From positions 35,410-67,409 of the forward strand of contig CAZSHG010000005.1 of assembly GCA_964606695.1 (NCBI GenBank): a stretch of 32,000 bases of DNA, read 5' to 3'. The DNA is from an uncultured bacterium. Its GTDB lineage: Bacteria > UBP14 > UBA6098. The notes beneath the pieces are model-generated. The model was given only the letters and a program-made list of their open reading frames with translations, did no database searches and had not been told where the DNA came from. Positions 1,565 through 19,489 of this stretch are shown in pieces; the stretch's first letter is position 1, and the number at the start of each line of letters is the position of its first letter. The position numbers and the translations under genes are program-made.

Positions 1565-2239
1565 ATGAGAGTCACTGTAATATTAGTTGCAGGCGGTTCG
1601 GGCGTGAGGTTCGGCGCGGAGATTCCCAAGGCGCTCGTGGAATTGGGCGGAAAACCTCTCGTGAGGTGTTCCGCTGAGGCCTTTTGCGGGATCGACGAAG
1701 TCGAGTCGATAATCGTGCTCGCGCCGGAGGGTTTCGAGAAGCGGTTCGAGGGCGTGTTGTCCGGTTTATCGAAGAAGATTATTGTCGGAACCGGCGGCGC
1801 GATGCGGACGGATTCGGTTTGCAATGGAATCGCTCTGGCACCCGACGGTTGCGATATTTTTGCTATCCACGATGCGGCGAGGCCGTTGGTCAAAATCGAA
1901 GATATTCAAGCTGTAATCAAAGCGGCAAACGAACACGGCGCGGCGACACTTGCGACTCCTGTTTCGGACACGCTGAAAATCGTGGAAAATGAAACAATAA
2001 TCGAGACGGTCGATAGATCGAGGTTCTGGGCTGTCCAGACTCCACAGGTCTTTCGTGCCGGTCTTTATAGGAAAGCTCTCGAATCGGCACCGTCCTCCCC
2101 CACCGACGATTGCGCGATTGTTGAGGGTTACGGTCATCCTGTGCGGGTTGTCGCGGGTTCGAGGTTGAACATCAAGATCACATATATCGAGGATTTGGCT
2201 ATCGCGGAGGCAATACTGAAAGGCGGAAAATGCACGTAA
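1565..2239 (+). CDS. ispD: 2-C-methyl-D-erythritol 4-phosphate cytidylyltransferase
   Basis: N-terminal VILVAGGSGVRFG...PKAL; IHDAARPLV; ATLATPVSDTLK; AVQTPQVFR; TDDCAIVE. Confidence 0.93.
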   Translation: MRVTVILVAGGSGVRFGAEIPKALVELGGKPLVRCSAEAFCGIDEVESIIVLAPEGFEKRFEGVLSGLSKKIIVGTGGAMRTDSVCNGIALAPDGCDIFAIHDAARPLVKIEDIQAVIKAANEHGAATLATPVSDTLKIVENETIIETVDRSRFWAVQTPQVFRAGLYRKALESAPSSPTDDCAIVEGYGHPVRVVAGSRLNIKITYIEDLAIAEAILKGGKCT

Positions 2240-3261
2240 CTGAAGATTTATTGCGCAAACTGGCGCTGTTGGAACAATCGGGCAGGACGATAATGTCGGT
2301 CTATCTCGATTTGCGATACGGCTGGGACGTCGCGGAAGAATCTATCGAAAAGGAAATCGACTGGTTGAAGAAGATTTTGAACGACGAGGAGATTGAGTAT
2401 TTCGAGGCCTCGCTGGAATTCATGTTCGAGTATTTCAATAAAAAGAAATCGAAGGGGTATTCCGGGCCGGGGCTGGCTTTTTTCATCGATCTGGAAGAGG
2501 GATACGCGACGGGAGTCGAGACGACTATTGCACACAAAACGTCGATTGCGGTTGACGATCAGGCAATAATTCTACCTCTGGCAAAGGAGCTTGACGAATA
2601 CGAGCCGGTGGGCGTGATAATGGCTGACGCTTCCGGCGCACGGATTATGATTTCCGCCGGCAAGGTGCTTGAGGACGAACGGGACGTTAATGTCAAAATT
2701 CATCATCTATCGAAGGTCGGCGGGTGGTCGCAGATGCGGTATCAGCGGCGTCGCGAGAAGGAGGTCAAGCACTTTGCGAAGGACGTGGCGGATATCGCGG
2801 ATAAGTTGTTTCGCGAGGAAAAGGTGAATCGCGTGCTTATGGCCGGACGGAATCGCATCCTGACGGCAATCGTGGAGGAACTGCCTCAACGCTGGCGCGA
2901 GTCGATTATCGATAGTATCAAATGGGACATGGCACTTTCGGACGACGAATTCGCGCGGAAGATTGCACCTTCGCTGGTGGAAGCCGAACGCGAACAGGAG
3001 GAGGAAGTCCTGGGCAGATTCATCGCGGAATACCGTCGCAACGGTTTAGCTAAAGGCGGTTTGCAGGATGTTCTCACGGCACTCGAGATGGGACAGGTGG
3101 ATACGCTGATTCTGGACAGCGATCTCGACGAGGAGCTGATGGAGGAATTGACTTCCAAAGCGGAAACGATTTCGGCGCATGTGGAGTTTGTTCCGACGAG
3201 CGATGATTGTCTGGCGAAACTTGGCGGTATCGGCGCGTTACTGCGATATAAAATTGATTGA
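2230..3261 (+). CDS. Bacterial archaeo-eukaryotic release factor (baeRF) / Vms1-like eRF1-domain protein
   Basis: 343 aa; layout with central RYQRRREKEVKHFAKDVADIADKLF and VNRVLMAGRNRILTAIVEELP, and C-terminal GLAKGGLQDVLTALEMGQVDTLILDSD, typical of the bacterial eRF1-like family; starts inside the end of ispD. Confidence 0.72.
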   Translation: MHVTEDLLRKLALLEQSGRTIMSVYLDLRYGWDVAEESIEKEIDWLKKILNDEEIEYFEASLEFMFEYFNKKKSKGYSGPGLAFFIDLEEGYATGVETTIAHKTSIAVDDQAIILPLAKELDEYEPVGVIMADASGARIMISAGKVLEDERDVNVKIHHLSKVGGWSQMRYQRRREKEVKHFAKDVADIADKLFREEKVNRVLMAGRNRILTAIVEELPQRWRESIIDSIKWDMALSDDEFARKIAPSLVEAEREQEEEVLGRFIAEYRRNGLAKGGLQDVLTALEMGQVDTLILDSDLDEELMEELTSKAETISAHVEFVPTSDDCLAKLGGIGALLRYKID

Positions 3262-7209: not shown

Positions 7210-7689
7210 CTACTTTTTTTTATTGGAGTTAGGTTCATTCGTATCGAGTAAACTCTTAAGCGCTGTCCGGAACTCGTTGACGTCCTTGAACTGACGATAA
7301 ACGCTCGCGAATCTGACATATGCCACTTGATCGACCTCCTGGAGTTTCTCCATCACTTTTTCGCCTACAACCTCCGCGTCGACCTCCATCGAACCGGCTT
7401 CGAGGAGTTCGGCTTCTATCGAATTGGCGATTGATTCGATCTGCTCGGCGCTGACAGGGCGTTTGCGGCAGGCTATCTGGATTCCTTTGATTATCTTAGC
7501 CCTATCGAAAGGTTCCCGACGACCGTCACGTTTGATAATAAGTAGCTGTGATTCCTCGACGAATTCGTAAGTAGTAAACCGCCGCCCGCAATCGAGACAT
7601 TCCCGCCGTCTGCGTACACCTCTCCCCTCCCGCACACTGCGCGAATCGACGACTCTATCCGAATTACTGCCACAATATGGACATTTCAT
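7210..7689 (-). CDS. nrdR: Transcriptional repressor NrdR
   Basis: MKCPYCGSNSDRVVDSR...GRGVRRRRECLDCGRRFTTYE zinc ribbon plus ATP-cone; Met of MKCPYCG is at 7689 (listed ORF starts at 7695). Confidence 0.95.
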   Translation of the reverse strand: MKCPYCGSNSDRVVDSRSVREGRGVRRRRECLDCGRRFTTYEFVEESQLLIIKRDGRREPFDRAKIIKGIQIACRKRPVSAEQIESIANSIEAELLEAGSMEVDAEVVGEKVMEKLQEVDQVAYVRFASVYRQFKDVNEFRTALKSLLDTNEPNSNKKK

Positions 7690-7784
7690 AAGCACCTAAT
7701 CTAATGTTATGAAAATACAGTTTATCGAAATTTTCGCAAGGAGAATAATGTCATTTTCGCGTAATTCTTTTTTATCCGCGGAAT

Positions 7785-7990
7785 GGGGCGTCGCGTTCCG
7801 TGGGGATCGGATCGGCTATTTTTCGGTTAAAGGAGGGATTTTGTTCCGATCCCCACGGAACCCGCCCATCCGGTTGATTAATCAACCTTAGTTCGATATT
7901 TTCGAAAATTTTCCTATCCAGAAGGTTCTTTAATTTGCTTCTGCCGGATGGGCGGAGTCGGTCGTATTTTACGACCGACTGCGACGCCCC
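7785..7990. other. Four-way-junction inverted-repeat element / candidate structured ncRNA or DNA element
   Basis: P1 7785-7794/7981-7990 (10 bp), P2 7795-7811/7845-7861 (17 bp), P3 7862-7873/7944-7955 (12 bp), P4 7956-7966/7970-7980 (11 bp), all perfect and directly abutting. Sub-hairpin 7919-7924/7938-7943 inside P3. T-run 7994-7999 follows. Confidence 0.85.
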
Positions 7991-7997
7991 CAATTTT

Positions 7998-8017
7998 TTG
8001 CATTTCGCAAAATGCAA
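7998..8017. repeat. Short perfect hairpin TTGCATTT-CGCA-AAATGCAA
   Basis: 8-bp stem, 4-nt loop, just downstream of the four-way element. Confidence 0.7.
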
Positions 8018-8102
8018 TCCGGAAACCTATCGAGGAATCATCCAGAATGTTGAAAAATAAGGGTATGCGAACCGGCATGTATGTTGCGTATGTTTAATAC
8101 AA

Positions 8103-8519
8103 ATGTGTAGGCGCAGGAAATATAGATTCGGGTTTACTCTTATTGAATTAATGATAGTGGTCGTTATTCTGGGCCTACTCGCCGCTATCGCTATACCACG
8201 GTATCTTCGCGCGTCTAAAAAGAGTAAAGTTTCCGAGGCCAGCACTATTTTGAAACAGATATTCGTAGCCTCGATGGAATATTACGAGGCCAACGGTTGC
8301 TATCCTACCGAAGTCGATGATATCTTTGGCGAAGGCGAGGATGATCTTCCAGATTGTTTTATATTGAAACAACCAAGTGGAACGCCTCGTTTTCAATATA
8401 ATCTCGAAGGAGACGGTGGAGCTACAGCGAATCCCAATCTCGACGTTGACGGGTCATTGGTGGGAGTAACTAAGGTAAAAATCGATGAGGAAGGCGTCCT
8501 ATCCGGAGGCGAATTTTAG
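8103..8519 (+). CDS. Type IV pilin / pseudopilin-like protein with class III prepilin leader
   Basis: RRRKYRFG|FTLIELMIVVVILGLLAAIAIPRYLRASKKSKVSEA. Confidence 0.93.
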   Translation: MCRRRKYRFGFTLIELMIVVVILGLLAAIAIPRYLRASKKSKVSEASTILKQIFVASMEYYEANGCYPTEVDDIFGEGEDDLPDCFILKQPSGTPRFQYNLEGDGGATANPNLDVDGSLVGVTKVKIDEEGVLSGGEF

Positions 8520-8559: not shown

Positions 8560-9393
8560 CTAATATGGAATCGGCCGCGTAATATTTCCCATCCATAAAG
8601 CCATTTTTTTAAATGCAGATTCGCATTCAGGTTCATTCTGGATTTCGTGATGACATTCCGGGAAAAAGATATATTCGGCATTAACAGCTCGTTTGCAAAT
8701 ATCCTCAGTCGCTACTCGCGAAGTTATCCTGTCGTTACCGCCGTGAAGTAAAAGGACGGGGAAAGTTAGCTCTTCGGCTTTTTTAAGAAAATAAAGACCG
8801 GACCTTTGAATCATCGTGAACAAACCGGCCGAAATTCTACTGTGAACCAATTCATCGTCGTCGTGTTTTCTGCGGGAATCCTCCAGACGCGATAAATCCG
8901 CCGTCTTGAGATTGTTGTTGAACGTTACTGAAGGTGCGATATAAGACAATATTGACGCAAGCCCTCGCACGAAAGCGTTTGGCGGATTTATCAATTTTAA
9001 CCACGGACTCGTAGCGATTACACCGTCCACTTCCTCACCCCTTCGGATAGCGTAATTCAAAACGAGATTCCCGCCCATGCTGTGGCCGTAGAGAAATACG
9101 GGGTTTTCAGGATACTCTTTTTCAATGTGATCTAACCAGAGTTCGATATCATCCAGTAGGATTTTGTATGATGGCGCGTGCCCATGCTTTCCGCCTGATA
9201 ATCCATGCCCGCGAATATCCGGGATCAAAACCGCATATCCCCTTTCGAGAAAAAACTCGGCGACGTGCTCGTATCGCTCCGAATGTTCCCCAAGACCATG
9301 TTGGATAATGATTACAGCGTGCGGATTGTCGCACATAAAAAAGCGCCCGTTTAACTCGATTCCATCCGACGCTTTAATTCGCTCATTCCTCAT
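8560..9393 (-). CDS. Alpha/beta hydrolase (monoacylglycerol lipase / serine aminopeptidase S33-like)
   Basis: IIIQHGLGEHSERYEHVAEFF...IPDIRGHGLSGG...VFLYGHSMGGNLVLNYA (GHSMGG nucleophile elbow)...LLHGGNDRIT...ECHHEIQNE. Confidence 0.9.
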   Translation of the reverse strand: MRNERIKASDGIELNGRFFMCDNPHAVIIIQHGLGEHSERYEHVAEFFLERGYAVLIPDIRGHGLSGGKHGHAPSYKILLDDIELWLDHIEKEYPENPVFLYGHSMGGNLVLNYAIRRGEEVDGVIATSPWLKLINPPNAFVRGLASILSYIAPSVTFNNNLKTADLSRLEDSRRKHDDDELVHSRISAGLFTMIQRSGLYFLKKAEELTFPVLLLHGGNDRITSRVATEDICKRAVNAEYIFFPECHHEIQNEPECESAFKKMALWMGNITRPIPY

Positions 9394-18239: not shown

Positions 18240-18315
18240 GGGGCCGTAGCTCAGTTGGGAGAGCGCCAGAATCGCACTCTGGAGGCCGTGGGTTCGACTC
18301 CCATCGGCTCCACCA
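18240..18315 (+). tRNA. tRNA-Ala (anticodon CGC), encoded CCA end
   Basis: Cloverleaf: GGGGCCG/CGGCTCC acceptor with the G3:U70 Ala identity pair; anticodon arm CCAGA-ATCGCAC-TCTGG; TTCGACT T-loop; ACCA end. Confidence 0.95.
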
Positions 18316-18323
18316 TGAAAATT

Positions 18324-19058
18324 ATGAACGTTCTGAACGGTAAAACGGCGATTATTACGGGCGCCGCCCGCGGCATCGGGAAGGCGATTGCGAAACTCTT
18401 CAGTGAGGAAGGCGCGAATTTAATCCTTGTCGATCTGGACGAAACCGAGCTGAAAAAGACGGCAATTGAAATTGGAGTTGAATCTTTCGTAGCGGATATT
18501 TCCAACGCCGAAGACGCTGAAAAGGCCGTCAAGACGGCAATCGATAAATATGGTTCTTTAGATATATTGATCAACAACGCCGGAATCACGCGCGACGCTC
18601 TCGCGATTCGGATGAAACCGGAGGATTTCGAGCTTGTGCTGAAGGTCAATCTGACCGGTGCTTTTCTTATGGCAAAAGCCGCGGCACGAGTTATGATGAA
18701 ATCCCGATACGGCAAGATAGTTAATATGGCAAGCGTTGTCGGAGTTAACGGGAACGCAGGCCAGGCGAACTATGCCGCATCGAAGGGTGGATTGATCTCG
18801 ATGACCAAGACTTTTGCCAAGGAGTTTGGCAATCGAGGGATTCGTGTCAACGCCATCGCACCCGGACTCATCGAAACGGAGATGACCGCGAATCTTCCAG
18901 AATCGGCACTCGAGGGTTTCAAAAATAAGATAGCCCTCAGCAAAGCCGCCGGCACTCCGGAAGACGTGGCAAAAGCCACTCTCTTTCTGGCGTCGGAAGA
19001 TTCGGATTATATTACCGGCACGGTTTTACCCGTCGATGGCGGGATGTTGATCGCATAG
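18324..19058 (+). CDS. fabG: 3-oxoacyl-[acyl-carrier-protein] reductase (SDR)
   Basis: KTAIITGAARGIGKAIAKLF...DILINNAGITRD...NMASVVGVNGNAGQANYAASKGG...PGLIETEMT. Alternative start ATG at 18315 overlaps the last base of the tRNA CCA. Confidence 0.92.
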   Translation: MNVLNGKTAIITGAARGIGKAIAKLFSEEGANLILVDLDETELKKTAIEIGVESFVADISNAEDAEKAVKTAIDKYGSLDILINNAGITRDALAIRMKPEDFELVLKVNLTGAFLMAKAAARVMMKSRYGKIVNMASVVGVNGNAGQANYAASKGGLISMTKTFAKEFGNRGIRVNAIAPGLIETEMTANLPESALEGFKNKIALSKAAGTPEDVAKATLFLASEDSDYITGTVLPVDGGMLIA

Positions 19059-19079
19059 TATATTTCAATTTTGATTAAT

Positions 19080-19195
19080 GCGGCTATACGCCGCGAATAT
19101 TGTTGCTACGATATTCGTTCCCCGAGCCGAATATCGTCCCGCTGGACTTGGGGGGTTATACCTGTAAGGTGCACCCCCGCTTAGTGGGGTTTTTT
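19080..19195 (+). promoter_or_regulatory. Candidate attenuator leader of the rpsQ operon (alternative hairpins plus intrinsic terminator)
   Basis: GCGGC-tatac-GCCGC 19080-19094; 10-bp perfect stem 19108-19117/19128-19137; antiterminator-like GGGGGT 19151-19156/ACCCCC 19173-19178; terminator ACCCC 19173-19177/GGGGT 19186-19190. Confidence 0.6.
19173..19195 (+). terminator. Rho-independent terminator-like hairpin
   Basis: ACCCC-CGCTTAGT-GGGGT followed by TTTTT. Confidence 0.7.
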
Positions 19196-19225
19196 GTATT
19201 GAAAAAGCTCATGGAGGCTTTAACT

Positions 19226-19489
19226 ATGAGAGAAAAAAAGAAGATGCGCGAAGGAGTTGTCGTCTCCAACGCGATGGATAAAACGGTGAAGGTGGAAGTG
19301 GCATACAAATACCCCCACCCTCTTTACGGCAAGGTCGTGAAGAGCCGACATACGTTCAAGGCACATGACGAGAAAAACGAGTGCCTCGTCGGGGATAAAG
19401 TCCTTATGGTCGAGTCTTCACCGCTGTCGAAGACCAAGCGCTGGCGCGTTTTAGAGATTCTCGAACGTCCTGAGGCCGCGGAGGTGTAA
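19226..19489 (+). CDS. rpsQ: 30S ribosomal protein S17
   Basis: [42 protein letters not shown]...[13 protein letters not shown]; Shine-Dalgarno TGGAGG at about 19212; start reassigned from 19100. Confidence 0.95.

Follow-up and report, generated by a model that had tools for sequence, protein, structure and literature searches.

Between nrdR (7210-7695, − strand) and a divergently transcribed type IV pilin-like gene (8103-8519, + strand) of an uncultured bacterium (UBP14; UBA6098) lie 206 bp (7785-7990) in which four perfect helices meet at a single junction. The question raised by this locus is whether such a sequence acts as an RNA or is simply a piece of DNA that has arrived there. A sequence-only reading of the window, i.e., the whole analyzed stretch of 32,000 nucleotides, had offered a standalone noncoding RNA, a long 5′-untranslated region (5′-UTR) element of either neighbor and a composite palindromic mobile element. 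The present analysis favors the last of these. The element is precisely inserted in one lineage, and a related lineage has, at an unrelated locus, another insertion that shares its terminal core and architecture. On balance, it is probably a mobile palindromic element resembling REPINs (inverted doublets of repetitive extragenic palindromic, REP, sequences) and miniature inverted-repeat transposable elements (MITEs), belonging to a small, apparently undescribed family, and a selfish or neutral insertion of noncoding DNA.

Two inverted units and their junction

The element is noncoding, has no assigned strand and is missing from the orthologous spacer of related lineages. Its ends form P1, in which the 5′ arm GGGGCGTCGC (7785-7794) pairs with the 3′ arm GCGACGCCCC (7981-7990) as terminal inverted repeats. 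Within these arms lie the core GGCGTCGC (7787-7794), which recurs in the second member, and its complement GCGACGCC (7981-7988). P2 (7795-7861), the long "cargo" hairpin of the left unit, has a perfect 17-bp stem (7795-7811/7845-7861) and a 33-nt AT-rich loop. P3 joins the inner flanks of the left and right units, CCGCCCATCCGG (7862-7873) and CCGGATGGGCGG (7944-7955), through 12 bp; its loop is the central AT-rich spacer of 70 nt (7874-7943), which contains the palindrome GGTTGATTAATCAACC. P4 (7956-7980), the short and tight hairpin of the right unit, has a perfect 11-bp stem (7956-7966/7970-7980) closed by a TTT loop. All four helices were recovered with the positions and sequences first claimed for them, comprising 50 Watson-Crick pairs with neither a mismatch nor a G·U pair, and they abut directly, leaving no unpaired base at the junction. 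The stems are 72% GC, the pooled loops 32% and the surrounding spacer 34%. A sub-hairpin CAGAAG/CTTCTG (7919-7924/7938-7943) had also been proposed within the P3 loop; the complementarity exists, and the sub-hairpin appears in the minimum free energy (MFE) structure of the − strand but not in that of the + strand.

Folding as RNA gave the four-way junction as the MFE structure on both strands. The MFE was −120.2 kcal/mol (z −11.7) for the + strand and −109.2 kcal/mol (z −12.0) for the − strand, and none of the 200 shuffles folded equally well in either case. As single-stranded DNA, the element had an MFE of −68.2 (z −11.5). About 3,900 windows of 180 nt from 118 kb of DNA of the clade were also ranked, without bias, by excess folding energy; the element was the most over-structured of all (GC-corrected z −6.2), and the second member, in the related locus L058, ranked second. 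No further cluster of long perfect inverted repeats was found elsewhere in the 32-kb window. The four-way junction is real and far beyond chance.

The composition of the element explains this fold. In each of the two members, an AT-rich spacer lies between two inverted units, and each unit is made of an outer flank bearing GGCGTCGC, a hairpin and an inner flank ending in CA(T/A)CCGG. In the window, the + strand reads GGGGCGTCGC, P2 hairpin, CCGCCCATCCGG, and the − strand reads GGGGCGTCGC, P4 hairpin, CCGCCCATCCGG. The flanks of these two units are identical (10/10 outer and 12/12 inner positions), and the difference is confined to the central hairpin. The L058 units are organized likewise, with flanks identical at 9/10 and 13/14 positions. 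P1 arises from pairing between the outer flanks and P3 from pairing between the inner ones, and the units' own hairpins extrude as P2 (long) and P4 (short). Since P2 and P4 are unrelated in sequence, they cannot pair mutually, and therefore the only possible fold is a four-way junction. In other words, an inverted doublet with two non-pairing internal palindromes gives a junction without free bases on either strand, and both strands fold because all 50 pairs are Watson-Crick. Without its two hairpins, the window copy would be a simple long hairpin of 114 nt and the L058 copy one of 82 nt.

No coding frame explains the element, in agreement with the sequence-only reading: the open reading frames (ORFs) crossing it have no Pfam match and no real homologues. 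A spurious 81-aa ORF, used as bait in two protein collections, retrieved nothing from one and two repeat-protein artefacts from the other.

Empty orthologous sites and a second member

The relatives' loci were chosen along a graded series of NrdR homologues, and six related lineages were sampled. The closest named homologue of the window's NrdR belongs to a Zixibacteria metagenome-assembled genome (MAG; 65% identity). The pilin/nrdR arrangement of the window recurs in loci L001/L002 (NrdR 88% identity) and L015 (NrdR 87%, pilin 58%), where the spacer between the two genes is 160 and 217 bp, respectively, against 407 bp in the window. In the alignments, the blocks TTGCATTTTGCGAA.TGC and ATATTCT.CTTGCGAA are kept in L001, L002, and L015, and 206 bp are missing. 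Between these blocks lie 66 to 68 nt in the relatives and 57 nt in the window minus the element; were the P3 loop native DNA, the window value would be 127 nt. These spacer lengths therefore favor one composite insertion. An alternative in which the units were inserted separately and trapped native spacer DNA as the AT-rich loops was also considered and rejected, the similarities of loop to flank and of loop to relative being not significant. Since the empty site matches in length in the two lineages whose flanks can be aligned, the simplest interpretation is that 206 bp, delimited by P1, entered the source lineage in one insertion.

No structure comparable to the element was found upstream of nrdR in any of the six lineages. 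Loci L003-L007 and L058-L062, which have other upstream neighbors, carry spacers of 91 to 164 bp upstream of nrdR and nothing comparable. A 391-bp pilin-nrdR spacer in L056 (5610-6000), whose NrdR is 81% identical to that of the window, was considered as a homologue and rejected, being very AT-rich, unstructured (z +0.9) and unrelated in sequence. As this long spacer lacks the element, spacer length at the site varies for reasons besides the element. Near the element, the window has a second lineage-specific indel, an alpha/beta-hydrolase (Hydrolase_4) gene (8560-9393) between the pilin gene and mreB; it is missing in L001 and L015, where mreB adjoins the pilin gene.

The second member came to light when GC-rich perfect inverted repeats were sought in the DNA of the relatives: L058 contains GGCGTCGCGC/GCGCGACGCC. 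Its core (L058 8987-9141, 155 nt) is identical in L059, from a second sample, and lies in a 203-bp spacer between a convergent HD-domain gene and ompA. The gap between the same two genes is 1 to 6 bp in the window, L001, L015, and L060, which are the empty sites for this copy. As the two genes nearly abut in these four loci, the L058 copy is, by this comparison, a second lineage-specific insertion at an unrelated site. The insertion exceeds the junction core by about 48 nt (8953-8986, 34 nt, and 9142-9155, 14 nt); a 4-bp outer stem, ATGC/GCAT, lengthens the fold there, and nothing corresponding to the additional sequence is present at the window copy.

The two members share their design more than their sequence. 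The L058 copy has a closing stem, a long hairpin of 59 nt, a hairpin of 62 nt with an AT-rich loop and a short hairpin of 14 nt, with no unpaired junction base, so that the order and relative sizes of its hairpins (59/62/14 nt) are like those of the window copy (67/94/25 nt). The short hairpin, CGTCC-TAAG-GGACG (14 nt; stem of 5 to 6 bp, loop of 4 nt), is the counterpart of P4. Folding of the better strand gave z −9.0 as RNA and −8.7 as DNA; in this member, too, both strands fold in either form. The closing core GGCGTCGC is common to both members, the chance of a shared 8-mer being about 0.012 at matched composition, and the P3 tip is nearly shared (CATCCGG in the window, CAACCGG in L058). No relationship is seen in P2 or P4, in most of P3, in the loops or in the sequences outside the elements. 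When the common parts were combined into a signature, its only matches in 526 kb of scanned DNA were these elements; a scan that ignored sequence and looked for three abutting hairpins enclosed by an inverted repeat found just these two strong cases in the DNA of the clade (about 50% GC). As a general detector, the criterion of three abutting hairpins was rejected; it was not specific in high-GC control genomes. The sequence-only reading had expected a mobile element to show itself by many unrelated genomic copies with conserved ends: unrelated sites and conserved ends are indeed found, in miniature, with two copies instead of many.

The second member also bears on whether the window copy could be an assembly or amplification artefact, a chimeric palindrome. 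The contig belongs to a MAG and is present once in the protein collection, and its palindromes are perfect, all of which would fit such an origin. However, an assembler would not be confused by arms of just 10 to 17 bp, the insertion has a unique sequence and is no local inverted duplication, and the flanks are colinear with those of the relatives. Furthermore, an independent assembly from other samples (ENA ERZ27252236, ERZ27252253) bears the second element, which has this design as well and does not differ between the two samples. An artefact is therefore highly improbable.

Promoters, transcripts and the RNA alternatives

The promoters of both neighboring genes were predicted from conserved sequence. 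The candidate nrdR promoter, TTGCGA-N16-TATTTT, runs from 7739 to 7712 on the − strand, between the element and nrdR, and is conserved in L001/L002. For the pilin gene, a sigma54-type promoter, GGCAT-GTATG-TTGC, is predicted at 8074-8087 (+ strand), its orthologous place being kept in L001 and L015. The pattern GGCA[CT]-N5-TTGC has this single occurrence on both strands of the 32-kb window, and L001 and L015 each have a single copy of it, likewise in the orthologous place. About 55 to 60 nt upstream of the sigma54 site, the palindrome TTGCATTTCGCAAAATGCAA (7998-8017, + strand) is conserved in the lineages of the window, L001, and L015, and is likely a candidate site for an enhancer-binding protein (PilR-like). 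The pilin-like gene thus appears to be sigma54-dependent. The element ends 7 nt from this palindrome and 46 nt from the −35 hexamer of nrdR. The predicted sigma54 start leaves nearly no leader ahead of the annotated pilin ATG at 8103. As for nrdR, the gene was listed from a GTG at 7695 (161 aa); the true start is probably 7689, as the source database protein (159 aa) and all relatives begin at the ATG two codons downstream (MKCPYC...).

These positions decide against a cis-regulatory leader (riboswitch, thermometer or attenuator) in the 5′-UTR of pilin or nrdR, an explanation to which the place of the element in the spacer between the two genes and the T-run after P1 on the pilin-sense strand would lend themselves. 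Each gene has its conserved promoter on its own side of the element, the orthologous spacers of the relatives keep both promoters without the element, and the second member lies between two gene 3′ ends. A leader function is accordingly very hard to credit, and the 5′-UTR interpretation was abandoned. The T-run itself (TTTTTT, 7994-7999) does follow P1 through CAA, as first described, but a scan for intrinsic terminators called none at either member, the T6 lying 3 nt after the branched structure in the window, and L058 having no T-run.

Another explanation that ties the element to the pilin gene is an invertible promoter switch (a fimS-like inverton), in which a recombinase would act at the inverted repeats and a pilin promoter would lie in the AT-rich center. 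The element is indeed an AT-rich segment of about 200 bp bracketed by inverted repeats upstream of a pilin gene. Besides, a relaxed sigma70 scan of the whole spacer gave two candidates only, the nrdR site and a weak TTGATT-N17-TATTTT in the P3 loop (7874-7902, + strand), so that, the nrdR promoter aside, the sole sigma70-like hexamer pair faces the pilin gene from within the element. This site carries little weight, however, because 19% of shuffled loops yield one. The pilin gene already has a conserved sigma54 promoter with an upstream site, the window encodes no recombinase, and the second member sits between convergent gene ends, where a promoter switch would be senseless. The nested hairpins P2 and P4 would also be left unexplained. 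We thus regard an inverton as very unlikely.

A more serious alternative, still clearly the less probable one, is a structured RNA that acts as RNA, e.g., a horizontally spreading small RNA, a 3′-end stabilizer or a terminator module, the DNA insertion being the spread of its gene. The extreme fold is in its favor, and so is an architecture kept while the helix sequences differ, which is a hallmark of structural selection. On its better-folding strand, which contains 6 G·U pairs where the opposite strand contains 2, the L058 copy begins 15 nt after the ompA stop, and the window copy has its T6 run after P1 on the + strand. On the other hand, the G·U asymmetry of 6 versus 2 is not significant (one-sided p of about 0.15), and in the window copy all 50 of 50 pairs are Watson-Crick, without a G·U, and the two strands fold about equally. 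Neither member has a promoter consensus upstream or a terminator call, the L058 copy has no U-tract on either strand, and the window copy lies between divergent promoters, so that no upstream transcript enters it. The statement that the element is not a recognized RNA class has held: searches against Rfam gave no match at gathering thresholds, except for the tRNA-Ala elsewhere in the window, and at E ≤ 10 noise only around both members; ARAGORN found nothing at the element. With no Rfam match, no promoter consensus upstream on either strand and no counterpart in the relatives, the standalone RNA of the sequence-only reading found no positive support.

A probable mobile palindromic element and its affinities

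The mobile-element reading has in its favor the features of a MITE: perfect 10-bp terminal inverted repeats, small noncoding members (206 and 155 bp) and presence/absence polymorphism. Several observations weigh against it. Only two distinct members are in hand; neither the 32-kb window nor some 130 kb of DNA from relatives contains a further copy, and the 12-kb locus of L058 has one. Exact probes, which detect near-identical copies only, gave nothing beyond chance in viral, genome-representative, and JGI metagenome collections, the source genome not being among them, and BLAST of both members against plasmids and phages gave nothing. The 32-kb window encodes no transposase, reverse transcriptase or recombinase gene, nor an IS200/IS605-like gene. 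As for a target-site duplication, the window copy is flanked by GGAAT and CAATT, which is at best AAT plus an extra C, and L058 shows no evident duplication. With a covariance model derived from L058 alone, the best match in the window lay inside the element, but the alignment was partial, in the wrong register and of E about 0.03. Finally, the fold is conserved though the sequences of P2, P4, and most of P3 differ, which is unlike the neutral decay of a MITE and fits selection on RNA equally well.

The individual searches can be summarized briefly. Among viral contigs, the P2 arm, the P3 arms, the P4 hairpin, the P2/P3 junction and the loop palindrome had no exact match, and neither the "uninterrupted" P1+P3 stem nor the P2/P3 junction of L058 was matched. 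The P1 ends alone, tried as a family probe in these contigs, gave seven loci, all in unrelated high-GC coding DNA. An 18-mer from the start of P1+P2 gave at least 40 single matches in 185,579 species genomes, none of those listed extending past 19 to 21 nt, and these were dismissed as chance. Metagenome scans with a junction-anchored and a two-arm P2 pattern gave no match.

Since the fold is kept while the sequence differs, selection on the fold is suggested, acting either on a single-stranded DNA transposition intermediate or on RNA. A stronger version of this idea is that the element is defined by its structure, the perfect four-way junction itself being selected because the folded single strand, DNA or RNA, mimics a Holliday junction. 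Here the agent would be an enzyme recognizing junctions or hairpins, such as a resolvase, a transposase of the HUH/RAYT-like kind or a tyrosine recombinase with folded single-stranded DNA as its substrate, as for attC/CTX integration, and the two variable hairpins might be lineage-specific recognition modules. We hold this version to be rather improbable, even more so than a structured RNA.

If the element is instead an ordinary REPIN/MITE-like insertion, as we favor, it would be mobilized in trans by an enzyme encoded elsewhere that recognizes the terminal core and/or the folded single strand, and the action of HUH/RAYT-type transposases on REP hairpins may serve as a model for that enzyme. 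The window copy would have landed in a dead zone between two divergent promoter regions, where its local effect is probably little beyond the 206 bp added between the promoters. From its flawless pairing it follows that the insertion is very recent or that the palindromes are actively maintained.

Among described sequences, REP dimers/REPINs and small MITEs come nearest. Inverted REP dimers, heterodimers and REPs nested in larger palindromes are known, and CGTC-REP units have stems of 8 to 9 bp, loops of 4 to 5 nt, an unpaired tag and a CCA tail (PMC3733652); the inverted-doublet layout of REP dimers/REPINs is also described in PMC3337134. Like the RAYT-associated REPINs and REP dimers with GTAG or CGTC tags, our element is noncoding and intergenic, with two inverted hairpin units and a spacer, the doublet folding into a larger structure on either strand and the sequence being lineage-specific under a conserved design; its terminal core GGCGTCGC even includes the CGTC tetranucleotide. 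In contrast, the hairpins of a REP doublet are normally the same or similar and give one long hairpin, whereas those of the element are unrelated (67 versus 25 nt) and give a four-way junction. Compared with CGTC-REPs, its stems are longer (10 to 17 bp), its loops are 3, 33, and 70 nt, and CGTC is paired inside P1. It also differs from a REP unit as such (20 to 40 bp, with an unpaired GTAG or CGTC tag), P2 and P4 having stems of 17 and 11 bp and loops of 33 and 3 nt.

With bacterial MITEs (Correia/NEMIS, ERIC, RUP, BOX), the element shares a size of about 150 to 210 bp, noncoding content, perfect terminal inverted repeats, an intergenic position and insertion polymorphism. As a class, these are small, noncoding, intergenic and stably folded if transcribed. 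Unlike them, the element has terminal repeats of about 10 bp, no clear target-site duplication and an interior of nearly all perfect nested palindromes; the fold is conserved between its two members but most of the sequence is not, and no partner insertion sequence was identified in the 32-kb window. The branched hairpin ends of parvoviruses and adeno-associated virus, i.e., their inverted terminal repeats, and the telomere foldbacks of linear Streptomyces replicons prime replication at linear termini. These resemble the element, in appearance only, by an outer stem enclosing small palindromes, loops of about 3 nt, nearly no unpaired bases and Watson-Crick pairing only; the element, however, is internal to the chromosome, encloses three hairpins, has AT-rich loops of 33 and 70 nt and has no replication protein gene nearby. 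RNA four-way junctions (hairpin ribozyme, twister-sister, U1 small nuclear RNA, the tRNA cloverleaf) likewise bring four helices to one junction, but with conserved unpaired nucleotides, G·U pairs and tertiary contacts, and the element matches no Rfam model. An integron attC site was rejected, since the ends GGGGCGTCGC/GCGACGCCCC are not of the form RYYYAAC...GTTRRRY and the helices are perfect, without bulged bases. The element is thus closest to REP dimers/REPINs and small MITEs and is no member of a named family, because its tag is paired and its stems and loops lie outside the described ranges.

The rest of the window is ordinary housekeeping chromosome, with nrdR, an rfaE-like kinase and cytidylyltransferase, the HD-domain gene, ompA, ispD, mreB, metK, a cluster with ribosomal-protein genes, secY, adk, and rpoA, and a tRNA-Ala. 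Adjoining ispD, a bacterial eRF1-like protein (2230-3261; baeRF family 10/eRF1 domains 2-3) is kept in all related loci fetched. The ribosomal cluster opens (18240-19489) with S17, listed with about 50 extra N-terminal residues, followed by L14, L24, L5, S8, L6, L18, S5, L15, secY, adk, map, S13, S11, S4, rpoA, and L17. S17 stands directly after tRNA-Ala(CGC) and a short-chain dehydrogenase gene; therefore, the S10-operon part is not upstream in the window. In the spacer after a GGDEF gene, a REP/BIME-like (bacterial interspersed mosaic element) cluster (943-1096) has two perfect 31-nt direct repeats of CATAAACCGCGGCGAGACGCCGCTACTATTA (1013-1043 and 1066-1096), each bearing a 6-bp GC hairpin, and an imperfect inverted copy (943-971); searches of the rest of the window and of the retrieved relatives' loci did not find this cluster. 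Where an ORF without Pfam match (1120-1515) begins, a 16-nt inverted repeat, TTGCCTGTCATTTCGA/TCGAAATGACAACCAA, with 57 nt between its arms, forms a hairpin of about 79 to 89 nt (1120-1208), which, as a generic hairpin, was the second-best match of the covariance model.

The findings carry a caution against reading very stable intergenic folds as riboswitch-like leaders, an interpretation which empty orthologous sites and promoter positions overturned here. If the family is confirmed, it would represent a new architectural type among small bacterial palindromic repeats, from a poorly known uncultured lineage: an inverted doublet in which the two units carry different hairpins, so that a perfect four-way junction is the only fold left to either strand. 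Such a family would be a useful test case for whether sequences of this kind are selected as single-stranded DNA transposition substrates or as RNAs.

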